64,000 bases of DNA from Candidatus Bathyarchaeota archaeon (lineage in GTDB: Archaea; Thermoproteota; Bathyarchaeia; Bathyarchaeales; Bathycorpusculaceae): positions 1 through 64,000 of the forward strand of contig CAWDYC010000007.1 of assembly GCA_963806535.1 (NCBI GenBank), in the 5' to 3' direction. The position numbers and the translations under genes are program-made. The notes beneath the pieces were generated by a model. The model was not told the origin of the DNA and searched no databases. It saw only the letters and a list, made by a program, of their open reading frames with translations. Shown here one piece after another: positions 3,176 to 49,210 of this stretch (position 1 is the first letter of the stretch; the number at the start of each line of letters is the position of its first letter).

Positions 3176-3321
3176 AATTTTCACCAATAGTTTATTTTTG
3201 AGTAATAACGGAATTCATCAATCGAATATTTAAATATAAATTTTTCTCATGAGATAAATATTAGAATACATAGCGAAAATTCAGAATTCTTTAATTTTAG
3301 CTTAGTGAGAGGTGACTATAA

Positions 3322-3660
3322 GTGAGTAAATTGACCGATGGCGACAAAGCATAGCTCTTGGGGTTTGAAAGCGGAAGAAACTTTTATAACTCAAAAATGA
3401 AGAACCGCGAAGTCACAGAAAAAACCTATACTCGCTGGTTTAAGAAATACTCTGACGATTTAGGTAAAACTCCAGATGAATTGCTTTTACTAAAGCCTAA
3501 CGTGGTTGAGGTTGCATTGATGATTCAGAAAGGCATAACGCGATAAATCTGAATGAAGCCGATAAAGTTCTTGAGAATTACATAGAGAACGATGAGATAA
3601 CTCAAAGTAATAAACTATTGATTTTAACAACTGTGAAAAGTTTCTATTCAGCCAACTTAA
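3322..3660 (+). pseudogene. Decayed N-terminal (core-binding) part of an archaeal tyrosine recombinase/integrase
   Basis: GAGGTGA RBS, GTG at 3322, in-frame TAG at 3352, then TEKTYTRWFKKYSDDLGKTPDELL. After a frameshift near 3543: EADKVLENYI...ILTTVKSFYSAN. This resembles integrase N-termini. No catalytic domain follows. Confidence 0.55.
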
Positions 3661-3809
3661 TAAGAATAAGATACGGAAAATATGTTTCGATGTCCTAAAT
3701 TTGAAAGTTCCTTGACGGGAACTGAAGTTCATATTTATTCTATTTTTCTATTGTGCGATTCAGACGGTTTAATACATCAAAAATAGGAATGTGAGTTTGT
3801 AAGAAAATA

Positions 3810-3855
3810 TGACTACACCAAGTCAAGAATCTTTTACGAGAAGGCTTTTATCGCT
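3810..3855 (+). promoter_or_regulatory. Repeated upstream element copy 1: TGACT-N6-AGTCAAGA palindrome plus BRE/TATA-like CTTTTATCGC
   Basis: tgact acacca agtcaaga atcttttacgagaaggcttttatcgct, about 20 nt before ATG 3875. Homologous to the copies at 4609 and 6940. Confidence 0.75.
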
Positions 3856-3874
3856 ACGGCTTTTAACAACTAGT

Positions 3875-4511
3875 ATGCGAAACAAAGTCAAAACTTTTCT
3901 TTTACTTGTTGGAATATTTCTTTGCCTAACCAGTCTGCTTCTGCCTTGGTGGAGAATGAGCGCTTCGACACAAAATTCGGGTTATGATGGTCATAGTGTG
4001 GGGTATGGAGTAGACGCTTCCGCTAATTTGTATTCTTTGACGGGTGGTGTAGGGTTCTGTCGAAGTGTCGGTGAGGATGATTATAAAATTGCGATTACAA
4101 ATGAAGGAGTAGAATATTGGTTTGGGTGGACTGCGCTTACATTAATCAGCTTGGGGATAATATTAGCTATAGTGGGAAATAATAAGTTACGAACTAGAAA
4201 ATGCCTCATGAGTTTTGATTCTTATCGGTATTCTAGTTTATCCTCTTGGACTGGAATTAAGCTTGAATTCAGAGTGGTTAGTAGGGAACCAACAATCTTA
4301 TTCAAATTTTCAAGTTCTAAATGCATTGTCAGGAAGCTTAGGTAACAGTTATTTTGGCTTATTCTCTTCAGGCACAGGTACTCAACAATTGCCAGCAATG
4401 TCATTTCGAGGAGAATTATTTTTCCCTAATGTAACTATGTATTATATGAGCTATCTTTCGGATGGATTTTTTACTGCCATTATCGGTGTTGTTTTGTTGG
4501 CTTTGGCGTAA
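3875..4511 (+). CDS. Hypothetical multi-pass membrane protein; frameshift near 4200-4220 joins ORFs 3809-4345 and 4215-4511
   Basis: Hydrophobic N-terminus ending LLLPWW, several TM segments, and a continuous membrane-protein character across the two frames. Confidence 0.6.
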
Positions 4512-4552
4512 ATAAAGGTAAAACCAGAAAGTCCTTCTAATTGTAGGTTATG

Positions 4553-4669
4553 GACCTTTTCCCAAGCAACTGTATATCCATCTCTGTTTGGTTGTTTGGT
4601 CAAGAAAGTTTGACTTGCCTTAGTCAAGAGGTTTAACGAATAACCTTTTATCGCCAAGAAATACCGTAT
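4553..4669 (+). promoter_or_regulatory. Downstream motif GACCTTTTCCCAAGCAA (4553-4569), followed by upstream element copy 2 (4609-4655)
   Basis: The 17-mer is 16/17 identical to 5653-5669. tttgact tgcctt agtcaaga ggtttaacgaataaccttttatcgcc precedes ATG 4679. Confidence 0.75.
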
Positions 4670-4678
4670 ATTTGCTAT

Positions 4679-5653
4679 ATGGGTAATATCAGTAAATCCT
4701 TTGTTGTATTACTTATCGCCTTATCTCTTATGCCAATGGTCACTCTCCAACAAACCGTAAATGCTCAAAACTCACAAAATGCTCTACCTCCAACAGAGTG
4801 GCAAAATAGCTATAGTAATAATGAATCAGGTTTTATGGGTGGGTTTGAGTCAGCTTCCAATGTTATCCAAACTGCGGATGGTGGATATGCTTTCATGGAT
4901 TTAGGTTGGTCACACTCGGTTAGCTTTCAGCCAGCTACCGTTTACAAACTAAATTCAACTGGTTTTATAGAATGGAAAAAAACAATTGATGACCTTCAAG
5001 CCAAAACTATTATACAAACAAATGATGGTGGATTTGAAATAACGGGCTGGTGGTCATCTTATGGTACAACTTACCAATTTACTCCCAATCTGGTTAAGAC
5101 CGATTCCCAAGCCAATATTCAATGGGTTGAGAATTATTCGAGTGACGGGATTGAGAACCCTTCAAATCTTCCTAATCTTGGCGTTACTTACCCTGTTTGG
5201 GAGCACGGAGGTTCTTATTCTACAGTTGGAAGCATTAAAACCAGCGATGGCGGATTTGCTCATTGGTCTCTTGGAAACATTACCAAGACCGATTCTTACA
5301 ACGACACTCAATGGGTAGAAAACATAACTTATGTTAGCGATAGAGGAGTTTCTCCTCTTGGATTAACATCTGTTATTGAAACATCGGATGGAGCACTTGT
5401 GTCATTAGGTGTTGGATACTATTCAATTAGTAATTCATTGACAGGCAAAATTTATTTAACGAAGACAAAACCATTTCTGCCTATACCTTCACCCACTCAA
5501 TTGCCAACTCCTTTGGCAACGCCTTCTTTATCAATAAGTAGTTTAGTAGCTAAACTAGCGATTCCAATACTTGTCGTTTCAATTTTAGCAATTATAATTA
5601 TCTCTTTGCTGCTTTATAGCAGGCATCGAAAAACCTCTAAACTAAATCGATAG
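4679..5653 (+). CDS. Secreted, C-terminally anchored protein with QTxDGG repeats (beta-propeller-like)
   Basis: Signal peptide; repeats IQTADGGY, IQTNDGGF, IKTSDGGF, IETSDGAL; P/T-rich linker; TM helix and basic RHRKT tail. Confidence 0.8.
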   Translation: MGNISKSFVVLLIALSLMPMVTLQQTVNAQNSQNALPPTEWQNSYSNNESGFMGGFESASNVIQTADGGYAFMDLGWSHSVSFQPATVYKLNSTGFIEWKKTIDDLQAKTIIQTNDGGFEITGWWSSYGTTYQFTPNLVKTDSQANIQWVENYSSDGIENPSNLPNLGVTYPVWEHGGSYSTVGSIKTSDGGFAHWSLGNITKTDSYNDTQWVENITYVSDRGVSPLGLTSVIETSDGALVSLGVGYYSISNSLTGKIYLTKTKPFLPIPSPTQLPTPLATPSLSISSLVAKLAIPILVVSILAIIIISLLLYSRHRKTSKLNR

Positions 5654-5669
5654 ACCTTTTCTCAAGCAA
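5653..5669 (+). repeat. Second copy of the 17-bp downstream motif, GACCTTTTCTCAAGCAA, between convergent stop codons
   Basis: Direct match to 4553-4569. Confidence 0.7.
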
Positions 5670-5671
5670 GG

Positions 5672-6919
5672 TTATTTTTGCCACTTATGTTTCTTGAAGT
5701 AAACCAACAACCCAGCGGCTAATGCAACCACTATAATAATTGCTGAAATAATGACTGCAAATTGTAAAGGTGAAATTTTCGAAGTAGATGTTATAGTTGG
5801 CAGAGAAATATCGACTTGTTGAGTAAGCGGATGATGGTCAATATTGTTTTGGTCAATATCGTATGTTCCGCCACCATTATAGTCAAACCAATAATTGCCG
5901 ATTGCACCGTTATCCCATGAAACAATTGCTGTTCCAGTTGTATAGTTTACCAGATATGTGGAGTTTTCGCCTGACCATTTATGCTCAACATTAGCGTTTT
6001 TGGAATTATTGATGAAATTGTTGTTATAGATTAAGTTGTTTGACCCTAGAAATGGTGATTCACTCGTTCGGTCAGGGTAGTCAATCACAAAGTTTCGCAG
6101 GTTAATACCGTTGGTATTCCCGACGATGTAGTTATCATAAACTGCTGAATCGTTACTATTGGCATCGAACTCAACGCCGTACCCATAGTCTTTAGAATCA
6201 CTATCATACCCAGTATTGAATGTTATGTTATTAGCAAAAACATTAGCATTCAAAGCATACTTCAGCGATATGCCAAAAGTATTATTTGTTATCTGATTGT
6301 TAAAAACCTTGACATTCTTTCCAGATAATTCCAAGCACCCAAGGTTGCCCGAAAATACGTTGTTGGAGACAATTCCATCGACAGAATTAATACTGACCTC
6401 AGTTGAACCTCTTTCTCTATTGCTTGAAAAATAATTCTTAGAAATCACCAAATTGCTAACTTCGCCAGCGCTTATGGCAAAGGGGTTTCCAAGAAACTTA
6501 TTACCTATAATTTGAATATTTGAGCATTTAGTGTCTTCATATACTGTAATGGCGACTACACAACTAACAAAAGTAAGGTTGCAAACACTCACATCAGAGG
6601 AGTAAATCTTAATTGTGTTATATGTCCCTGCCCAACCATGGGGTTGAGGTTCGCCATGGATTATTGTTTTGTTCCAGTCTTCTCCTATCAATGATAGCGG
6701 TTTTCTAATTTCCACAGAATAACAATAGTATTCTCCTTTTTTTACAAAAACCTTGTCTCCTGCACTTGCATTGCTTACAGCCGATTGGATAGTTGGGTAT
6801 TGTTCTGGAACAATGAGGGTTCTGGTTTGGGCTTTAACGGTGAAAGATGGTAGCAAAACTAAGGACATTATGAATAATAGAACAAGCAACAATGCGAAAC
6901 TCTTGCCGATATTGCCCAT
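5672..6919 (-). CDS. Secreted NosD/CASH right-handed parallel beta-helix protein with C-terminal TM anchor
   Basis: IVPEQYPTIQSAV..A..GD.VFVKKG.Y, Asn-rich beta-helix repeats, WDNG..GNYW.DY..D.HPL, TM followed by FKKHK. Confidence 0.85.
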   Translation of the reverse strand: MGNIGKSFALLLVLLFIMSLVLLPSFTVKAQTRTLIVPEQYPTIQSAVSNASAGDKVFVKKGEYYCYSVEIRKPLSLIGEDWNKTIIHGEPQPHGWAGTYNTIKIYSSDVSVCNLTFVSCVVAITVYEDTKCSNIQIIGNKFLGNPFAISAGEVSNLVISKNYFSSNRERGSTEVSINSVDGIVSNNVFSGNLGCLELSGKNVKVFNNQITNNTFGISLKYALNANVFANNITFNTGYDSDSKDYGYGVEFDANSNDSAVYDNYIVGNTNGINLRNFVIDYPDRTSESPFLGSNNLIYNNNFINNSKNANVEHKWSGENSTYLVNYTTGTAIVSWDNGAIGNYWFDYNGGGTYDIDQNNIDHHPLTQQVDISLPTITSTSKISPLQFAVIISAIIIVVALAAGLLVYFKKHKWQK

Positions 6920-6939
6920 ATTTAATGTTAGAAACTATT

Positions 6940-6988
6940 AGCGATAAAAGGCTATTCGTAAAAGTCTCTTGACTGATTTTAGTCAAGG
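6940..6988 (-). promoter_or_regulatory. Repeated upstream element copy 3 (reverse strand)
   Basis: Reverse complement reads ccttgact aaaatc agtcaaga gacttttacgaatagccttttatcgct, about 20 nt before ATG 6919. Confidence 0.75.
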
Positions 6989-7265
6989 TTTGAGACTGGA
7001 TAAAAACTAATTTCAGGTTCAGAAAATTGTTATTTTTATGGCGATTTTGCAGTGATTAAAACCTTATTTTCAAATATAAGTAGCAATTTCCAAAACTGAA
7101 TTCGTGTTTTCACACAGTCTCGTTATTGACTAGGCTGTAGCTTTTTGGTTTAGATTTCTCAAATAGCTTTTTGTTATTTTCGTTACTCTATTTTGGCTGG
7201 TAATCTATTGTCTTCTATTTCTTTAAGCTGCCAAACCCTGAAGCAGAGACGGCTCAAACTTTCTA

Positions 7266-39487: not shown

Positions 39488-40846
39488 TCAGGACAACATC
39501 ATGGGAGCCTTTTTGATAACAGTCCAGAAACCTTCCCTCTTAATCTTATGCAGAATCCGCTTCGGCGACTTATTGAAGCTCATGTGGAATTGCCGCTGAA
39601 TCTTTAATAAAGACGCATAATCGAAATCCGCAGTTTTCACATATGCCGCGTAATCTTCAATTTGGTCGTAGAGGTGGTTCTGCATGACTTCATCATAGAG
39701 TGGGCTGCCTGGAACTGCAATGTAGATGTTCCAACGGCAGAAGTCAGGGTCAAGTTTTCTAGCGAACTTAAATGAAGTTTTCATGTCCTCGACTGTTTCG
39801 CCGGGGATGCCCAGCAGAAAAGAACAGGCAGTTTGAATTCCCTCATCTCTGCACAGCTCAAATGCACGTTCAGTCTGCTCGACTGTGATACCCTTGTTAA
39901 TTTTCTCGAGAATTCGAGGAGAGCCAGATTCGACCCCGAACCATATGGTTTTGCAGCCTGCAGATTTCATTTCTTGCACGAGTTCTTTTGAGAGGAGATC
40001 GGCTCGGGTGTCACAGACCCATTGGAGGTCAAGTTTACTTTCACGGATTAATCTACAAAGCTCAATGGTTTCTTTCTTTTTAATGGTAAAATTATCGTTT
40101 ATGAAATACACGCCTTTGGTGCCGAAGTTAGTCATTAAATATTTGATTTCGTCCAAAACCCTTTGAGGGCTGAAAGTGCGGCATGTTCGCCCCATCAACC
40201 CCGTGGTTTCACAGAAAGCACAACTAAACGGGCAGCCCCTAGCAATACTCATGTTATCCACGGGTTTAACGTTTAGATATTCCATTTCTCTTACGTAACG
40301 GTCCATCGGCAACAGATGCCAAGCGGGAAAAGGAATCTCATCCATATTCTTAATGAATTGCCGCTGGTTTTTGATGATTTTATCGTTACTTCTATATGCA
40401 AGTCCAGCAATGTTGGAGGGTCCGCTGGTTTTGTCGCCTTTGATGATGTAGTTGGCAAGCTGCTTCATGGCGAATTCGCCCTCGCCCATAACAACATAGT
40501 CAACTTCGGGATTCTGCAACAAGGTTTCGGGTTCGTATGAGGCATGCCAGCCGCCGACAACAACTTTGCAGGTTGGCACGGTTTCTTTAACTGCCTTGGC
40601 GGTTTCGATAACTCGACTATAAGTCACTGAGCTGCAAGTTATACCGACTATTTCAGGTTTGAGTTTCGCTAATTCAGCCGTTATCTCTTCAATAGGCTTC
40701 TCCAGCATGTAGTTATCTATCATCTGGACTTGAAAACCGCTCCTTTCTATGGCAGCAGCAACGTAAGCTAAGCCTATTGGAATGAATTTTCTGCCATGAA
40801 TCCAAGGTCCCTTTACTGGGGGTGCAGGCGTCATTAACAAAATCAA
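39488..40846 (-). CDS. B12-binding radical SAM enzyme (class B methylase-like)
   Basis: PIGLAYVAA, GGWHA, GEGE, RGCPFSCAFC, DDNF-like NDNF, GVESGS, GIPGET. Confidence 0.9.
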   Translation of the reverse strand: MILLMTPAPPVKGPWIHGRKFIPIGLAYVAAAIERSGFQVQMIDNYMLEKPIEEITAELAKLKPEIVGITCSSVTYSRVIETAKAVKETVPTCKVVVGGWHASYEPETLLQNPEVDYVVMGEGEFAMKQLANYIIKGDKTSGPSNIAGLAYRSNDKIIKNQRQFIKNMDEIPFPAWHLLPMDRYVREMEYLNVKPVDNMSIARGCPFSCAFCETTGLMGRTCRTFSPQRVLDEIKYLMTNFGTKGVYFINDNFTIKKKETIELCRLIRESKLDLQWVCDTRADLLSKELVQEMKSAGCKTIWFGVESGSPRILEKINKGITVEQTERAFELCRDEGIQTACSFLLGIPGETVEDMKTSFKFARKLDPDFCRWNIYIAVPGSPLYDEVMQNHLYDQIEDYAAYVKTADFDYASLLKIQRQFHMSFNKSPKRILHKIKREGFWTVIKKAPMMLS

Positions 40847-41078
40847 TCAGTATACGTCCTATCTGTTGCGAGTAGAAATAGTTACTATGGAAGTTTGTAG
40901 ATAAAGATTTCTTTAAAAATCAAAATCTTGCTTTTTTCGCAGTTGAAGGTCAAATAAAGTGGAAACAGTAGGTGTTTCATCTCATAAACCCAGTTTTGCA
41001 GTTTTTATTTAAAATTACGAAATGTTTAAGCACCCGTCATCTTGTATTTTCAGGAAATAAGGCATTTAGTGAAACGGA

Positions 41079-42464
41079 ATGAAGCCGCACGTAACTCTTG
41101 TAAATCCACCAACTCCGCAGGGATCTATGGGACATTTACCCTTTGCAGTTTTAGGTTTAGGCTATTTAGGCGCGGTTTTGGAGAAAAACAACTTTACAGT
41201 TGACGTTATTGATTGCCAGGCGCTCAACCTCTCATTTGAACAGGTTAAAGAGGAACTCAAAAAGCGTCAGCCCGACATAGTTGGCTTAACGGCAAGCACA
41301 CTCTCATACAAATCAGGATTAAAAATAATAAAATTAGCAAAAGAAGTTAACCCAAACATCTTAACCATAATGGGTGGACCGCACGTTACCTTCTGGGACA
41401 CCCAAGCCTTAGAAGAATGCCCGCAACTCGATGTTGTAATAAGAAGAGAAGGAGAGTACACATTACTGGAGTTAGTGCAGAAGGTGGAGGCAAAACAGGG
41501 TTTCCAAGATGTTCTGGGCATTACATACCGTATCGATGGCAAAATCGTCAAGAATGAAGACCGACCCTACATAGAAAACCTCGATGAACTGCCTTTTCCG
41601 GCACGGCATCTCTGGCCTATGGAGCAGCTGCGCAAGTATGAGGATGTTCTTTACTTAACCACCAGCAGAGGCTGCGTATTCTGGTGTAATTTCTGTGCCA
41701 CTGTACGAATGCATGGCCGAAAATATCGGTGGAGAAGCCCAGAAAATGTGGCGGATGAACTGGAGTTGCTGCATAAAAACTATGGCGTAGTCACATTTAC
41801 CTTCTGTGACGACGCATTCACCGTGGACCAAGCAAGAACCGAAAAGTTGTGCAAGGAAATTCTTAACCGCAAATTACAAATAAAATGGAACTGCGGCACC
41901 CGCGTTGATATGCTAACTAAAGAGTTGCTTGTTAAAATGAAGGAGGCTGGTTGCATCTCGGTTTGGTTCGGTGTGGAGTCGGGTTCTCAGCAAGTCCTAG
42001 ACGAAATGAAGAAAGGCATCACTACTGAACAAACCATAAAAGTGTTGGGCTGGGTGAGAGAAGTCGGGTTAAAACCGGTTCCCAACGTAATCTTAGGATT
42101 CCCCAGCGAAACAAAGAAAACCGCTTGGAAAACGATAAAGTACGCAGAAAAACTAAGTCCTAAAGATGTCCCATTCTACAACATTGCCACTCCGTTTCCG
42201 GGCACGCCTATGTACGACCAGGTTATAGAGAAAGGCTGGCTAAAAGTAGCCGACTTTGACAAATATGACACTGCAACACCCATTTTTGAAACGCCCTGGA
42301 TAAGCATGAAACAACTCAAAGAGATTCGGCAACAGGCGTTCAACCACTTCTATCTGCGACGCGCTTACTATCTTGACAAATCCCGGCGGTTCAAAATTTC
42401 CACGGCGCTCACTGTTGGAATTAACTTGGCAGCATTCATAAAATCGAAGTTTAGAGCACTATAA
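41079..42464 (+). CDS. B12-binding radical SAM enzyme
   Basis: LGLGYLGAVL, GGPHVT, SRGCVFWCNFC, DDAF, GVESGS, TPFPGT. Confidence 0.9.
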   Translation: MKPHVTLVNPPTPQGSMGHLPFAVLGLGYLGAVLEKNNFTVDVIDCQALNLSFEQVKEELKKRQPDIVGLTASTLSYKSGLKIIKLAKEVNPNILTIMGGPHVTFWDTQALEECPQLDVVIRREGEYTLLELVQKVEAKQGFQDVLGITYRIDGKIVKNEDRPYIENLDELPFPARHLWPMEQLRKYEDVLYLTTSRGCVFWCNFCATVRMHGRKYRWRSPENVADELELLHKNYGVVTFTFCDDAFTVDQARTEKLCKEILNRKLQIKWNCGTRVDMLTKELLVKMKEAGCISVWFGVESGSQQVLDEMKKGITTEQTIKVLGWVREVGLKPVPNVILGFPSETKKTAWKTIKYAEKLSPKDVPFYNIATPFPGTPMYDQVIEKGWLKVADFDKYDTATPIFETPWISMKQLKEIRQQAFNHFYLRRAYYLDKSRRFKISTALTVGINLAAFIKSKFRAL

Positions 42465-42631
42465 CAAAAAAATGAGCTCACAGTTAGTCTCTGACGTTTT
42501 TTAATAACTACTAATTTTCAGTCATTTCTCAGGTTTTTGAGGCAGCCTAGTACTGAGATGCAGAAAAATGCAAAATATATATGGTGCAGTTCGTATTACA
42601 GCTAACTAACAACGCATATTAGGGAAGAGAA

Positions 42632-44035
42632 ATGACCACTCACATTACACTAGTAAATCCCCCATATCCTTTAGGGTCTCATTTGCACCCACCGTTCCTC
42701 CCATTGGGTCTTGGTTATTTAGCTGCAGTTTTAGAAAAAAACAACTACAAAGTCGACATAATCGATTGCCAAGCTCTCAAAATTGGTTATGATCAAGCTA
42801 AAGAGGAAATTAAAACTCGCCAGCCCGACATAGTTGGAGTTACCTCAACCACACTTACATACAAATCTGCACTAAAAATTGTGCAAATGGCAAAAGAAGT
42901 AAATCCTAACATTTTAACAATTATGGGTGGACCACACGTCACATTCTGGGATCAAGAAGCCTTAGGAGAATGCCCACAACTCGACGTCGTAGTAAGAAGA
43001 GAAGGCGAACAAACCGTACTAGAATTGGTACAAAAAGCCGAAGCAAAACAAAGCTTCAAAGACATATTAGGCATAACTTACCGCGACAACGGACAAACAG
43101 TGAGAACTGAAGATCGCCCTTGGCTAGAAAACCTCGATGAATTACCCTTCCCAGCCATTCATCTGTGGCCTATTGAAAAAATGAGAAGCTTCGGCGAAGT
43201 AATCTTTCCCCTAACCACGAGCAGAGGCTGCGTATTCTGGTGCAACTTCTGTACTGCCGTTCGTATGTTTGGCAGAAAATACCGCATGAGAAGCGTAAAG
43301 AACGTAGTAGATGAAATTGAATATCTGCACAAAACCTTTGGTGCTGAACACTTCACCTTCTACGATGACGCATTCACGGTAGATCAATCCCGAACCGAAG
43401 CACTATGCCAAGACATCCTTAACCGAGGGTTAAAAATACGGTGGAACTGCGAAACCCGCGTTGACATGGTTACCAAAGAGTTACTTGCTAAAATGAAAGC
43501 TGCAGGATGCACTGATGTCTGGTTTGGCGTTGAATCCGGTTCAAATAAAGTGTTAAACTCTATGGATAAGGGAATCTCCATTGAGCGAACACAACAAGCC
43601 TTCAGATGGGCACATGAAGTCAAACTAATGACAGTTGCAAACGTGATTCTTGGCTTCCCAACTGAAACCAAAGAAAGCATCTGGCAAACCGTTAAATTTA
43701 TCGAAAAACTAGACCCAAACGACGTTGGCTACTACATTGCAACACCTTACCCTGGAACACCCATGTACAACCAAGTGAAAGAAAGCGGTGCACTGCAAAT
43801 CTTCGACTTCGACAAATACGACACAGCAACACCAACCTTTAAACTCGATAACTTAACCATGGAAGAACTCAGAGAAACACGCGAAAAAGCATTCCACAGC
43901 TTCTACTTACGACCCCGCTACATGTTAAGCGTGATCTTCAAAGGCGGAGTCTACGGCCGAGCATCAACCATGCTGGTCTTAGCTCACCTTCGCAGAGCAA
44001 TAAGGTCCAAATTCTCTTTCAAAAAATCAGCTTAG
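42632..44035 (+). CDS. B12-binding radical SAM enzyme, close paralog of 41079-42464
   Basis: PLGLGYLAAVL, GGPHVT, SRGCVFWCNFC, GVESGS, TPYPGT. Confidence 0.9.
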   Translation: MTTHITLVNPPYPLGSHLHPPFLPLGLGYLAAVLEKNNYKVDIIDCQALKIGYDQAKEEIKTRQPDIVGVTSTTLTYKSALKIVQMAKEVNPNILTIMGGPHVTFWDQEALGECPQLDVVVRREGEQTVLELVQKAEAKQSFKDILGITYRDNGQTVRTEDRPWLENLDELPFPAIHLWPIEKMRSFGEVIFPLTTSRGCVFWCNFCTAVRMFGRKYRMRSVKNVVDEIEYLHKTFGAEHFTFYDDAFTVDQSRTEALCQDILNRGLKIRWNCETRVDMVTKELLAKMKAAGCTDVWFGVESGSNKVLNSMDKGISIERTQQAFRWAHEVKLMTVANVILGFPTETKESIWQTVKFIEKLDPNDVGYYIATPYPGTPMYNQVKESGALQIFDFDKYDTATPTFKLDNLTMEELRETREKAFHSFYLRPRYMLSVIFKGGVYGRASTMLVLAHLRRAIRSKFSFKKSA

Positions 44036-44140
44036 ACCCAGTTTTCTTGTAGGCAAGCTCCAAGCAGTTTTTCTTTTCTTCATTTAGTCAAAAGTGAGGC
44101 TTTATATCACATTTCAGTAACTTCTTCCACGGGGTATATC

Positions 44141-44975
44141 ATGAAAGTTGCCTCTATGTGGAGCGGAGGAAAAGACAGTTCACTTGCTACTTACGATGCT
44201 ATTATGCAAGGCCATGAAGTTTCAGACTTTGTAAGCTACAGTTACAAAGGAACCTCTCAACCAAATCCAAATATGCCCATCAGTCCACTAAGTCGAATCT
44301 TCAATATAGTTGGAAGAGCAAGCCCAAGTATAGTATCTAACCTTGCAAGCGTCATTTACCATAAAGACCTCAGCACCATGATTCCCCATGAGGTTGCACC
44401 AGAAATCATACAGAAACAAGCCCAAGCAATTGAAGTGCCTCTTGTTCAGGGTGAAGTAAGATGGGACACAATCGATCAATTCTTAAAAACCAGCATTCGC
44501 TCACTAAAGACGAAAGGAGTTGAAGGTTTAGTTTTTGGAGTGGTGCCGCCCACATTTTCCTCTGGACACTAGCGAGAAACTCAGAGAATACCAGACTCTC
44601 GTGGCACATAAGGAATGGATGAACCGCATCTGCAGTGAATTAAACGTAAAACCAATTACGCCACTTTGGGAAAGCAACCCTGATCAGATTCTAAGAGACC
44701 TCATCACCAAAGGGTTTGAATCAATTATCCTTGTGGTAGATTCGAAATATTTTGGTGAAGAATGGTTGGGCCGAAAAATAGACAAGGACTTTTTGGATGC
44801 TGTATACAAGCTTAAACGGGAAAAAAGCGTACACATCGGAGGCAGCGGATACCACACGCTGGTTTTAGACGGCCCGCTTTTCAAGAAACGATTAAAAATT
44901 CAGAAAAGCCGAAAAATTTGGAAACGCGGATACGGTGTCTTAGAAATCGATGAACTAGATCTCGTAGCAAAATAG
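44141..44975 (+). CDS. Divergent Dph6/DUF71-like PP-loop ATP pyrophosphatase; frameshift near 44550
   Basis: WSGGKDS, QAQAI..PL, PLW, WLGR, YHTLVLDGP.F; two insertions relative to 22672-23358. Confidence 0.75.
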
Positions 44976-45076
44976 TAAAACAGCAAGTTTAAACCATCTT
45001 AGTCTTTGGCTGGTTTTTTTGGAAACTATATAAACTGTAGCTACGTATAGTTTGGAAACTAAATGGGTGTCTCTAT

Positions 45077-46531
45077 ATGTCGATGGTGGAAAAGAAAAAT
45101 GTGAAGGTCGCATTAGTTAACCCACCTATCATTGAAGGTACGTTCCGCCATCAACTTTATCTGCCGATGGGTTTAGCCTATTTGGCAGCTGTTCTTCAAC
45201 AAAACGGCATCGAAGTTAAAGTCATCGATTGCCAAGCCATATACATAAATCATGAGCACCTAAAATCAGAGTTGAGCTCTTTTCAACCCGACATTGTGGG
45301 GATAACATCAATTGCCCCGTTGATGAGTTCAGCGTTGCTGTCAGCGAAGGCGGCAAAGGAAACCTTGCCTGGCGTCCAAGTGATAATGGGTGGGCCTCAC
45401 GCGACGTTTATGGATGAGCAAATCATCGCGCAGGAATCAGCGGTTGACCTCATCGTTAGAGGTGAAGGCGAACAGACGCTACTCGAAATTGCGCAAAACC
45501 TAGGCGAACACAGCAAACTCCACGACATTAAAGGAATCACTTACAAAGAAAACAACCAGGTTCTCCGAACACCCAACCGACCTTTCATTCAAGATTTGGA
45601 TGCTCTACCCAAACCAGCCTACAACCTCTTCGAGCTTGACAGGTATCGGCTGTTTGGAAAAAGACTCTTACCCGTAATCACAAGTCGAGGATGCCCCTTC
45701 CAATGCAATTTTTGCGTTGCAACACGCATGTTCGGCAAAGAATATCGTATGCGAAGTGCAGAAGGCGTGCTCGACGAGTTGGAATGGTTAAAGAATACTC
45801 ATGGAGCTGAAGCGTTCACGTTCTATGACGATACTTTAACGTTTAACAAAGAGAGACTTTTCAAAATCTGCGACGGAATGAAAAGCCGAGGAATCAATCT
45901 GCCATGGGATTGCCAAACAAGAGTTGACCAGGTGTCGCCTGAGGTTTTGGCAAAGATGCGGGCGGCAGGCTGCCAACAGGTGTTCTTCGGTGTTGAATCA
46001 GGCTGCCAAAAAGTCCTCAATGCTATAAGCAAAAAAACGCGTGTTGAACAAAACGAAAAAGCGATAAAGATGGCAAAAGAAGCGGGTCTTTTCGTTACAA
46101 TCTCATTAATAATTGGCTATCCAGGCGAAACACAAGATACATTAAAAGAAACATTGACTTTTGTTCAAAAAACAAAACCTGACGACGTTTATGTTTGTGT
46201 AGCTACGCCTTTTCCAGGGACAGAGCTGCGGAATGTTGTTGAGAAAAATGGGTGGCAAATATCTGCTAACTGGGATTGCTTTGATACGATGACGCCTGTT
46301 TTTGAAAATCCTGAGTTATCGCTTTCACCCAAAGAGATTAAGAGATTTAGAGAACAATTCTACGACAGCATTTATTCTCCACGCTATGTTATTCAGCATT
46401 TGCTTAGAAGGAATTCTTACAGTAGAATGATGGCGCGAACAGCTGCAAACCATATTTTGTGGAGAATCAAATCATCTCGGAAACAAGAAGAGGATGTTCC
46501 TTCAGAAAATAGTGCACAACAGACAACCTAA
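45077..46531 (+). CDS. B12-binding radical SAM enzyme
   Basis: PMGLAYLAAVL, GGPHAT, GEGE, SRGCPFQCNFC, GVESG, GYPGET, TPFPGT. Confidence 0.9.
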   Translation: MSMVEKKNVKVALVNPPIIEGTFRHQLYLPMGLAYLAAVLQQNGIEVKVIDCQAIYINHEHLKSELSSFQPDIVGITSIAPLMSSALLSAKAAKETLPGVQVIMGGPHATFMDEQIIAQESAVDLIVRGEGEQTLLEIAQNLGEHSKLHDIKGITYKENNQVLRTPNRPFIQDLDALPKPAYNLFELDRYRLFGKRLLPVITSRGCPFQCNFCVATRMFGKEYRMRSAEGVLDELEWLKNTHGAEAFTFYDDTLTFNKERLFKICDGMKSRGINLPWDCQTRVDQVSPEVLAKMRAAGCQQVFFGVESGCQKVLNAISKKTRVEQNEKAIKMAKEAGLFVTISLIIGYPGETQDTLKETLTFVQKTKPDDVYVCVATPFPGTELRNVVEKNGWQISANWDCFDTMTPVFENPELSLSPKEIKRFREQFYDSIYSPRYVIQHLLRRNSYSRMMARTAANHILWRIKSSRKQEEDVPSENSAQQTT

Positions 46532-46541
46532 TTCAAAAAAA

Positions 46542-47680
46542 TTATTTTGGATAATAACCTAGAACCTTCAGCAATGCCTTGGTAGAAGGGTGTTTTCCAT
46601 ACTTAACATGAATTAGCTGAAGAATCTCTTTTGCAGGAAATAGAAAATTAACGGTCTTGTTTAGTTCATGAAAGGGCTTGCCGCTGAATTGCGAGTAGTT
46701 GTGAATGTAAAAGAGAAGCGCTTGTTTGCGCGAATAGAAGTGAGGAATGTAATTTTCGATTTTGTACTTTCTGCAGACAGAATCGAACCGCACATATGTC
46801 GCGTATAAGTAAGACTCGTCCATATTGCCGCATGAAGGAGACATTGGTCTTCCCTCATACAGCTCATTATATTTTGAAAGCAACGGTGTACGTTGACTGA
46901 TTCAGGAAAGTTTTTGAAGCGGTCCGATCCCCTCATATCCAACATTCCGCTTAAAACAAATTTGGCACCGTTTTTCTTAGCTGCCTCAATAACCTGCGAC
47001 ATATTTTCCTCGGTGTCTGTTACAAATGGAATAAGCGGAATCATCCACAAACCGACCGTTATGCCCTTATCTGACAGCTTTTTTATCACTTCTAGTCTTC
47101 GTTTTGGAGAGGGCGCATTCGGTTCTAGAGTTTTTGCTAATTTTTCATCAAGCGTTGTTATCGTTACTGCGATGCAGCACCATGATTTTTTAGAAGCCTC
47201 TTCCAAAAGGTCTAGGTCACGTAGAATAAGATCGGACTTCGTGCCGATTGCAAAAGGCCAACCGTTCTCATTCAACACTTCCAAAATTCGGCGTGTAATT
47301 TGATATTTCTTTTCCGCTGGCTGGTATGGGTCCGTGCTTAAGCTTAATCTAACGACACCCTTCCGCTTAAACGTGGATAATTCTTTGGCTAATATTTGGG
47401 GTGCATTCGTCTTAGCATAAACAGGAACGGAAAAATCCTTGCATCCTTCATATTTTTGAGAACTAGTGTGGCAGTATAAGCAGTTAAATTCGCAGTTATT
47501 GTAGGGATCAAAACAGTAGCTTGTCCAAAACTGAGTTTTTAACATCTCAAATGTGCCCAAAACACTCTTGCAGTTTGTTTCTTGATATTTAGCCGGTTCT
47601 GGAGGCATTGAATCCCTTTTCAGTTTCATTTCATCCTGTAAGATATTATTAACTTTAGCTATTTTTGTCTGAATAATCAT
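46542..47680 (-). CDS. Radical SAM protein of the spore-photoproduct-lyase-like (Rv2578c-like) family; frameshift near 46895
   Basis: DPYNNCEFNCLYC, STDPYQPAE..Y.ITR, TKSDLILRD, LEP.APSP..RL. Confidence 0.8.
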
Positions 47681-47760
47681 CCCTCAAACTCGTTGAACAG
47701 TATAATGTCAGCAGAATACTCCTTTAACGGTGTGAATTGTTACAAACTTCTTAGCTGCAT

Positions 47761-49210
47761 TCATTTTCCCAACAAAAACTGAATTGTTCTTTTTGGGTTG
47801 CGAAGTGCCTTTGCAATCTTCGCGGGAGTTAGTGAGTAGTTTATGAGATTTGCTTTGGCGCATAATTCGCTAAGTTCGGTTGCTGTGAACTCTGGAGTTT
47901 CAATTAGAGGTTCAACTTCGGCTAGGGCTTCATCGCTGAATTTCTCCTTTAAATAGCCGCCTCTTACTGCTTGTTCGTAAAGTTCAGTCCCGTAAAGAGG
48001 CATGGCTATGCTGAAGTAAAATCTGTCAGCGCCAAGGCTTCTTAGTTTGTAAGCATACTTTATTGTTTCGTTTATGTCGTCTTTTGTTTCGCCTATAAGA
48101 CCAATAACAAAGAAACAACCAACTTTGATGCCCACTTTCTTAGATAAAATAACAGCTGTTTCAACATCTTTCAAATTCAAGTTCTTCTTGACAATCTTGA
48201 TCTAAAACTCGTTGAACACCAGATTCTGGAGCAATACGTATTTTTTTGCAGCCGGAAGCTTTCATTTTTCTTAAAAGATTTTCATCAAGAGTGTCTGCTC
48301 TAACGCCGTTGGGTGTAAACCATTCAATGTGTAATTTTCTTTTTACGATCAGATCGCAGATGGCTTCTCCTCTTTTTTTGTCTAGCATCATATTGTCATC
48401 GTAAAAATCAATCTGTTTAATTTTATACGTGTTAACCAAATATTCGATTTCATCAACCACATTCTGGGGACTTCTTCCTCGCCAAGTTTTTCCCATAACG
48501 TTATGAATTGAACAAAAAACGCAGCCATAAGGGACAGCCTCTGCTGGTTATCATCATTGCCCAGGGTTTGCTAATTTCACCTCGCAGGGGATTTTCTTTC
48601 ACAGCTTCAAAATATGTATTCATTGGAAGTAGATGTCTTGCAGGAAATGGCAGCGAATCTAAATTTTCGATTGGAGGTCTCGGAGGCGTAATAACTATTT
48701 TTTCTTTCTCGGCAAAGCCAATACCTTTTACGTTCTTGACTTTGTCTCTATTTTTCTCTAGTGCATCCACTAACTCGGACATAGTTTGTTCTGGTTCGCC
48801 AATAACAACAAAATCAATGTCGGGATTTGCAAGGCATTCAGTTAGGTCTTGTAGAGGGATGTAAACCATTCAGTACGACGGTGACGTCTTTGTTGATGTT
48901 TTTTATTGCGGAAACAACTTCAGCGGTAGATTTCCACCAACCAGAGAACGGAACTGAAATATCAACGACGCTTGGCGACCATTCTTTTACTCTATTTGCT
49001 ATTTCCTCGTTGGATAAACCCTGTCGATAATTCATTCCCTTTATTTCTTCAAGGTTTTTCCAGCCTTCAGCAGGCGCATCTATTATTCGGACGTCGATGT
49101 TCCTTTTCAAGAACAGCTGCTATATACGCTATATCTAAAGGTTGAAATACACTTGGTTTTCCCCATAATTTGGGATGAATACGCGGGGGATTAATTAAAC
49201 AAACGCGCAT
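47761..49210 (-). CDS. B12-binding radical SAM enzyme broken by several frameshifts (track ORFs 48838-49110, 48501-48869, 48161-48496, 47761-48180)
   Basis: MRVCLINPP..QPLDIAYIAAVL, GLHP, GEPE, SRGCP..C.FC, DDN, PNGVRAD, APESG, P..GTELY. Confidence 0.82.

Follow-up and report, generated by a model that had tools for sequence, protein, structure and literature searches.

A promoter head shared by exchangeable surface-protein genes in Bathyarchaeia

In Neisseria, the dRS3/NIME repeats and minimal mobile elements are abundant short palindromes beside variable surface genes, which are exchanged by homology; these repeats are bacterial and are not promoter heads in fixed register to a start codon. 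Several other systems join short repeats to mobile or regulated genes. Integron cassettes and the archaeal clusters of attC sites lacking integron integrases (CALINs) form tandem, mostly co-oriented arrays of single-gene units that are rich in secreted and membrane proteins and often have no integrase nearby (PMC9668308). The Xer/dif sites and the pdif modules of Acinetobacter have inverted arms around a 6-bp spacer, occur in many copies with adaptive cargo, and are served by a recombinase in trans (PMC8371274, PMC6449649), while CTnDOT and Tn916-type elements recombine across a variable overlap between conserved arms, possibly under a short homology rule (PMC2817482). In the LysM-lysW operator of Sulfolobus, a main palindromic site, which can overlap an upstream stop codon, and a degenerate site over the transcription factor B recognition element (BRE) lie on one face of the helix (PMC3597687). 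Each of these systems resembles in some respect the element described here, a promoter head of about 60 bp that occurs three times in a 64,000-nucleotide stretch (the window) of a Candidatus Bathyarchaeota archaeon (assembly GCA_963806535.1, contig CAWDYC010000007.1, positions 1 to 64,000) and recurs in related genomes. At this common head, many unrelated surface genes are swapped, stacked and moved.

The head comprises box A (TYAGTCAA-GAAACT-TTGACTAA), a degenerate box B that lies 24 or 35 bp downstream and has the left arm of box A and the right arm TTTACGAA, and a 3′ part that, by established archaeal promoter geometry, reads as a BRE, a TATA element and a leaderless ATG. A main site followed by a degenerate second site at the BRE is also the layout of the LysM-lysW and Ptr2 operators; the head differs from LysM-lysW in its unrelated sequence, in its spacing of 24 or 35 bp rather than 21, and in its dispersal over unrelated surface genes that are themselves mobile. 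In what it produces the system resembles integron arrays; its anatomy resembles that of a LysM/Ptr2-type promoter (PMC3597687).

A first-pass annotation of the window had reported three palindromes with different 6-bp linkers, a downstream TTTWACGA block, regular distances to the ATG and two copies of a 17-mer, and all of these are as it stated and above chance. TGACT-N6-AGTCA occurs exactly three times in the window (3810, 4611 and 6970-6985, with linkers ACACCA, TGCCTT and, on the minus strand, AAAATC), against a mean of 0.19 in shuffled sequence and with none of 100 shuffles reaching three. With up to three mismatches allowed, the block TTTWACGA-N5-CTTTTATCGC has three matches in the window, all of them exact, and the ATG follows 20, 24 and 21 nt past it. 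The 17-mer GACCTTTTCYCAAGCAA is found only at 4553 and 5653, the next best match having three mismatches. The palindrome had been drawn too short: the motif continues for about 15 bp upstream into box A, which is intact at the second site, decayed at the first and split at the third by a miniature inverted-repeat transposable element (MITE). The 6-bp spacer, which had been likened to the centre of a dif site, proves to be the linker between two tandem boxes, whose facing halves supply the inverted arms.

The wider sample came from a scan of species-representative genomes with the query TGACT-N6-AGTCAAG-N15-18-CTTTTAT, which returned at least 126 stretches representing at least 125 loci; all counts from these loci are lower bounds. 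At least 120 of them are true head loci, from 44 genomes, several of which hold multiple copies. The head is nearly confined to metagenome-assembled genomes (MAGs) of Bathyarchaeia, with 116 of the 125 listed loci named Bathyarchaeia or Bathyarchaeota and one Thermoproteota, and the window genes match such loci at 64-82% DNA identity. Three contigs with bacterial names (L036, L062, L065) carry the head, and their genes share 57-85% identity with genes of the archaeal loci; these Bathyarchaeia-like contigs have probably been mis-binned. Five further bacterial matches (L019, L041, L048, L057, L104), in which the remaining motif is absent, are chance matches and were left out of the counts; eight overlapping duplicate loci were removed prior to counting. 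Neighbourhoods were read in 71 long sequences (1.27 Mb). A further set of 36 heads, located through box B alone with a scorer that gave no match in 500 kb of shuffled DNA, is free of the constraints of the query.

Conservation is strong where the query made no demand. Positions -12 to -4, which lie outside it, read GTCAAGAAA at 93-117 of 119 sites, and conservation is lost to the left of -15. An invariant A stands three bases before the TATA element CTTTTATC, the gap from the box B arm to TATA is 17 nt in 119 of 125 distinct matches, though 15-18 was allowed, and the first ATG falls at +31 or +32 from the start of TATA in 59 of 119. Among the 36 query-free heads the spacing of the boxes is 23-25 bp in 21 and 34-36 bp in 7, with box A absent in 8; the linker is 5-7 bp in 21 and 16-18 bp in 7, its 6-bp length elsewhere being set by the query. 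Since the spacing classes of 24 and 35 bp lie one helical turn apart, the tandem sites are in helical phase, and this phasing and the fixed BRE/TATA distance are both features of archaeal BRE-adjacent operator-promoters. In L023 divergent genes are served by a single head. Eight heads (13 if one mismatch is allowed) have the box B spacer in reverse orientation and nonetheless front a TATA element.

The genes behind the head are predicted to encode secreted or membrane-anchored proteins. In the long loci and the window, 100 of 119 heads are paired with an open reading frame (ORF) of at least 100 residues, the others having a broken frame or none, and 95 of these 100 ORFs begin with a hydrophobic stretch; of the other ORFs, 242 of 1014 do so. 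The 100 form 27 clusters and match the Pfam NosD/beta-helix, PQQ, Kelch, NHL, lectin and Ig-like domains, or none; Pfam found no housekeeping family among the 100 ORFs downstream of heads. Common signal-peptide starts and transmembrane anchors ending in RHRK or KHKH recur among the proteins. The letters PEF or PEL stand near the C-terminus in 28 of the 100; in a search with the PEF-CTERM model TIGR03024, one of 28 proteins matched, at 21.5 bits and below the cut-off of 23. A 263-bp internal segment that is 93% identical between otherwise different cargo genes (L029 9086-9348, L044 13990-14252) points to a probable shuffling of domains within them.

The contents of slots differ between related genomes. 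A slot behind aspS holds a beta-helix gene in the window and PQQ propellers in L073, where the flank is 82% identical, and in L051. One locus has one unit in L020, one in L024, two in L075 and at least two in L081/L082, and the L024 gene resembles the others only in its last 28-54 residues; the contents of the L047/L122 slot also differ. The same gene may stand at another place, as in L045/L052 (86% over 994 bp), L053/L068 (89% over 610 bp) and L018/L123. Empty alleles are found for L068 and L052 against L017/L117, for L075 against L060 and L080, for L050 against L099 and for L009 against L012. Three apparent cases were dropped: L026/L045 as an orthologous pair, whose common flank is an insertion sequence (IS), the upstream matches of L029/L044, which are common tails, and L017/L117 as a swap, where the gene is the same. 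This last slot, which keeps an orthologous gene, and the promoter anatomy are what a plain static regulon would predict, an operator standing before genes that stay put; it is contradicted by slots of variable content, at aspS and at the L020/L024/L075/L081 locus, and by the moved genes, the empty alleles, and the tail remnants and unlinked flanks described below, and we give it hardly any credence. Of the two options offered at first, an operator beside the BRE fits the anatomy better. The other option, a self-promoted, cassette-like system that shuffles surface-protein genes, is supported. What the annotation had named as grounds for giving it up was not observed: none of the 100 downstream ORFs is a housekeeping gene, and breakpoints of rearrangement fall on the motif. 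The two are not exclusive: the regulatory head is also the place of gene exchange.

Units carry recognizable tails. The 17-mer, correctly noted at both places as a shared 3′ sequence, is the start of a 3′ tail that follows RHRK anchors and leads to the next box A; at many loci the complete tail runs 33-46 bp into that box, and 7 of 29 RHRK-linked tails reach one. Other kinds of tail, at least three in number, also stand before box A (one group in L089, L093, L110 and L118, one in L010, L030, L042, L053 and L111, and one in L020, L051, L081, L047 and L122); some contain palindromes centred on GTAC. A tail or anchor remnant lies within 70 nt upstream of 62 of 161 heads, against 140 of 3000 random windows (about 5%). 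Arrays of 2-8 heads are present in 23 of the 71 sequences, where 66 of 71 heads share the prevailing orientation, with gaps mostly of 0.7-2.4 kb and no head-to-head junction against 111 head-to-tail. In head-to-tail arrays box A can supply the stop codon of the previous gene.

These tandem, mostly co-oriented arrays of single genes resemble those of integrons and CALINs. The units are unlike integron cassettes in that each has its own promoter and the repeat heads the gene instead of following it. An attC-like hairpin was sought and rejected: pairing stays within that of column shuffles in every register examined (box A, box B, linker-centred and outer), and folding of eight strands gave z-scores of -0.1 to -3.4 and no common structure. 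No IntI or attI was seen beside an array, in searches by integrase hidden Markov model (HMM) and motif scan that matched in 2 of 71 loci and are not specific for IntI, and CALINs are likewise without IntI. With the dif and pdif systems the head shares its many copies, its adaptive cargo and a possible recombinase in trans; its inverted arms around a 6-bp spacer resemble theirs in the heads found by the query, where that length was set. It differs from them in that its spacer can be 17 bp and its site is fused to a promoter. Where pdif modules need a site on both sides, 74 of 100 head genes have no 3′ box between -45 nt and +150 nt of the stop codon, and most of the others run into the next head. 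Nor is the spacer identity expected of recombining dif sites found, as 81 different linkers occur in 132 heads. The dif/pdif reading is therefore weak, and on these features the head falls outside both pdif modules and attC integrons (PMC6449649, PMC8371274, PMC9668308).

We lean towards reading the head as an operator-promoter and the cassette-like shuffling as driven by the homology between heads, not by a site-specific enzyme. A dimeric DNA-binding protein would contact one helix face at both boxes, B being the weaker, and, because box B abuts the BRE, would most likely activate (or gate) leaderless transcription. Dozens of heads per genome, with the common signal-peptide starts, transmembrane-anchor ends and tails, would provide short direct repeats around unrelated genes. 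Recombination between these repeats, presumably RadA-type or through microhomology or slippage, could pop genes from arrays, insert them at other heads and swap bodies between head and anchor; occasionally a whole head with its gene may land at a new place through a ragged tail junction. Integrative elements and provirus-like islands could ferry units between genomes. The outcome would be integron-like, with single self-promoted genes in variable slots, and would involve neither a fixed crossover point nor a dedicated local recombinase.

Breakpoints point to exchange that is spread over the head, and they map to the motif itself. L018 and L123 are identical from -20 through both boxes, and the L099 junction lies 3 nt before box A, which places both breaks left of box A. 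In L046 the break is at a box spacer, with a duplication that ends at the spacer edge. The switch between L024 and L075 lies past TATA, with another inside the anchor, and in L078 the break is at the ATG, the whole head from -35 to ATG having been duplicated onto an unrelated gene. Recent copies bring both boxes and the linker unchanged into formerly boxless sites, and new insertions start 3-45 nt left of box A and are ragged at the other end. The 167-bp duplication of L046 that ends in the box also contains two matches to the DUF3800-X RNA (RF02984; 10136-10206 and 14005-14076), near an ORF that we take, from the start of its sequence, to be DUF3800-like.

A further possibility is a mobile promoter: the head would form the one fixed end of a non-autonomous element, and a transposase acting at that end would move it together with downstream DNA of variable length. 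The sharp loss of conservation left of -15, the ragged insertions that begin just left of box A and the duplicated head of L078 would be expected, as would a near-perfect geneless head in L011 (10042, minus strand) that points into the 3′ end of a thermosome gene and may itself be a relic or an antisense promoter. We consider such an element improbable. The left edge of new insertions has no conserved terminal dinucleotide and no target duplication; the remnants of an earlier unit's tail in front of 62 of 161 heads show that the left end is not clean; the cargo is almost only surface proteins; and the sole transposase tied to the boxes inserts into them.

Linkage along the head was read at polymorphic positions, in a small number of pairs, some of them related to one another, against a baseline excess of about 0.15 within a genome. 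There is no linkage between upstream flank and leader (excess identity -0.05 in either direction). In 18 independent pairs that share leader and gene start, identity is in excess at the box B spacer (57 against 42.0 expected, p 0.001) and the BRE (46 against 30.6). A whole-box test had suggested that box A is unlinked to the gene; it was abandoned when splitting by position revealed an arm excess (63 against 54.5), which at a near-invariant arm may only mirror closeness to the consensus. In 19 independent pairs that share upstream DNA, the excess lies at -15/-14, the linker (61 against 47.7) and the BRE (45 against 32.2, p 0.006), and not in the leader. Since the gene-side and upstream-side linkages overlap over box B and the BRE, exchange appears to be spread, with a possible preference near the linker.

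Several observations weigh against shuffling by homology alone. The 18 gene-side pairs have no excess at the linker (48 against 45.4), at -3/-2 or in upstream DNA, and such a drop at the linker is what a preferred crossover there would give. By our own count, among 30 open frames listed from 201 boxes, 15 anchor-ended ORFs use the TGA or TAA of a box as their stop. In 10 further instances a head is fused to an anchor, starting 2-9 nt past the RHRK codons, and together these suggest a preferred joint. The central GAAA of box A is polar and is kept at 94-98%. The linker begins with AA or ends with TT but seldom both: of 132 heads, 15 have both, 46 and 50 have one only and 21 have neither (odds ratio 0.14, p 1e-7; 0.16 among the 81 distinct hexamers). 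Heads are short and only partly identical, and would be a poor substrate for ordinary homologous recombination. Finally, it is from sequence patterns that we infer the operator role of the boxes, and with it the binding protein and the sign of regulation.

The two linker classes are approximately reverse complements and occur together within single genomes. This pattern, with the reversed box B spacers, fits inversion of the palindrome loop; a recombinase with a two-base homology rule would fit too (PMC2817482). It is possible, though we think it rather unlikely, that such an enzyme is at work in a dedicated cassette system. A tyrosine recombinase, either XerA or the integrase of an element, would be supplied from elsewhere in the genome, bind the arms and exchange strands at the linker or box spacer, tolerating mismatches as IntDOT does. 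The unit would run from box B through promoter, gene and tail to box A, circles would re-integrate at other heads, and breakpoints elsewhere would be later decay. The linkage step at the linker, linker classes reminiscent of a 2-bp homology rule (PMC2817482), 11-bp arms with a 6-bp spacer that match dif geometry (PMC8371274), the regular, co-oriented arrays, the stop codons supplied by box A and the L046 duplication that ends at a spacer edge are all in keeping with this proposal. It accords poorly with the missing 3′ boxes and with the 15 of 36 query-free heads that have a linker of 16-18 bp or no box A, the same two features that tell against a dif-like core. For two random heads the chance of a common linker is 0.010 and that of a common box A spacer 0.135. 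In recent copies the boxes and the linker have travelled unchanged to boxless sites, and the L024/L075 switch lies beyond TATA; head-to-head junctions are absent, and the flips of linker and box B spacer may both be palindrome-loop inversions. The head also differs from CTnDOT and Tn916, to which its variable overlap between conserved arms likens it, in lacking a linked integrase or excisionase and paired element ends, and in having breakpoints beyond the overlap.

The supply of recombinases bears on the same question. An adjacent integrase remnant in the window had been cited in favour of cassettes. It is real, and comprises only the N-terminal ~110 residues; as a general neighbour of heads it does not hold, since tyrosine recombinases were found (by tblastn, catalytic-motif scan and HMM) in 2 of 71 long loci, where 4-6 kb separate them from the heads, a search from which distant or broken recombinases may escape, Pfam not having been run on all 1114 called ORFs. 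Clustering of neighbours gave no recombinase or transposase family that recurs beside heads. Should a recombinase nevertheless be involved, the heads would constitute a cassette system outside integrons and pdif modules. It might then be a new type of integron-like system, a prospect that we likewise think rather unlikely: its double-stranded, promoter-bearing sites would be at once regulatory head and the DNA on which a recombinase acts in trans despite mismatches in the 6-bp overlap, and adhesin-like proteins would be shuffled genome-wide over dozens of slots.

Boxes are also targets of transposition. Eleven insertions of an IS1182-family element or its MITEs lie precisely in the middle of a box, with a 4-bp duplication (window 6992-7121, L045 10049-11721, L026, L022, L004, L058, L059, L085, L092, L028 and L003); about five credible insertions lie elsewhere. 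The window MITE has terminal inverted repeats and copies in L020, L056, L085 and L004. A full IS with the same ends is present in L045 and L026, where two frameshifted halves match NF033551 (E 1.8e-47 and 6.1e-53), each half-match falling below the whole-protein cut-off. It would appear to be a target-specific archaeal IS1182-family IS that lands on head boxes. Members of IS1182 duplicate the loop. Targeting of inverted repeats has been reported for IS1272 (PMC5678879). Such precise targeting of box centres might be counted in favour of a dedicated recombinase; the insertions mark the box as a recognised palindrome without showing it to be a recombination site.

The shuffling of genes at these heads looks to be a mode of cell-surface variation that has not been described before. 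Among the uncultured archaea of soils, peat and sediments, Bathyarchaeia rank with the most abundant, and they have many unexplained beta-helix, beta-propeller and Ig-like surface genes. The head offers a single searchable tag for this repertoire and a likely explanation of its expansion and turnover; it also provides a first candidate regulon for the group and marked slots in which the mechanism may be read. No published description of the head or the shuffling was found, in a search that was thin on subscription papers and had supplements outside it, so that a prior mention is possible; neither the available part of PMC10848311 nor a term search of bioRxiv 10.64898/2026.10.09.758139 yielded a mention of the head.

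The three heads of the window lie in a low-GC island with a thermosome gene on one side and a Sua5 gene on the other. At its left edge is the broken N-terminal remnant of a tyrosine integrase (3319..3695, plus strand; approximately profile positions 12-109 of 423), which belongs to the tyrosine integrase family of Bathyarchaeia elements: an HMM from 69 homologues matches 3355-3543 (E 5e-18) and 3510-3695 (E 3e-9), and the remnant is 49% identical to the full-length integrase of L066. Head 1 follows (3795..3852, plus strand), with a decayed box A at 3795-3814 (position weight matrix score 8.0), the linker at 3815-3820, box B at 3819-3840 (46.3), the BRE, and TATA at 3845-3852. Gene 1 (3875..4511, plus strand) encodes a multi-pass membrane protein with a leaderless start and no Pfam match. 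It had been listed rightly as a surface gene; it is frameshifted near 4205-4216, and its halves match one 215-residue protein, P0070 (76% and 65%), which relatives encode in a single intact gene. A 3′ tail module (4551..4595, plus strand; 17-mer at 4553-4569) leads into the box A of head 2.

Head 2 (4596..4652, plus strand) has an intact box A at 4596-4615 (score 27.8), the linker TGCCTT, a box B with a 1-nt deletion, the BRE, and TATA at 4645-4652. Gene 2 (4679..5653, plus strand; 324 residues) encodes a signal peptide, a repeat-rich body and a C-terminal transmembrane anchor ending RHRK. Its homologues (41-52% identity) follow other heads in L039, L052, L023 and L045, and its body is possibly a beta-propeller, a lead drawn from Atlas look-alikes that are mostly unnamed, some being beta-propellers. 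The truncated tail of gene 2 is the second 17-mer (5653..5669, plus strand), which sits between the stops of genes 2 and 3 and is cut by the end of gene 3.

Gene 3 (5672..6919, minus strand; 415 residues) encodes a NosD-like parallel beta-helix surface protein (PF05048, E 1.6e-13; TIGR03804 repeat) with a signal peptide and a C-terminal transmembrane anchor. The three genes had been called unrelated, which is true of their bodies and not of the starts of genes 2 and 3, whose first 55 residues, with the signal peptide, are 40% identical. Head 3 (6943..6991, minus strand) runs from TATA (6950-6943) through the BRE, box B (6976-6955; score 52.6) and the linker AAAATC to the right half of box A (6991-6981). 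The 130-bp IS1182-family MITE (6992..7121) sits at the exact centre of that box with a 4-bp duplication (TAAC/AAAC), and the left half (7122..7135, minus strand) aligns with the intact box A of L073. Beyond it is the flank common to L073 (7136..7755, minus strand; 82%), about 380 bp of non-coding DNA and a frameshifted aspS 3′ fragment (codons 372-450, 7755-7516) that forms the right edge of the island; the window holds no further piece of aspS. The third unit had been read as an inversion. Its orientation and flank match L073, and with head-to-head junctions absent it represents an independent arrival.

The integrase remnant and the aspS 3′ fragment at the two ends fit a decayed element that targeted the 3′ end of aspS, and from them we infer that the island is a decayed integrative element that gathered cassettes. 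Scans of the window for Rfam families and tRNAs found nothing. Targeting of tRNA genes was discarded as a general rule, as a few heads lie behind tRNA ends (L068, L121) and most of the 72 loci scanned have no tRNA nearby. In four loci heads adjoin terminase-like genes (L010 6976-8472, L036 1107-2579, L079 7103-8578, L029 16384-17841) with a small partner like a helix-turn-helix (HTH) protein and no other obvious virion genes. These are possibly a small element family, and this adjacency makes mobile islands plausible carriers of heads. Genes for ArsR-type HTH proteins fused to a membrane or extracellular part often adjoin heads (L009, L012, L038, L044, L052, L078) and are candidates for head regulators.

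Away from the island, positions 39488-48900 of the window hold a run of paralogous, putative B12-binding radical SAM-like genes beside cobalamin genes, as labelled from their ORFs, several of them frameshifted. The many frameshifts across the window suggest errors of long-read assembly.

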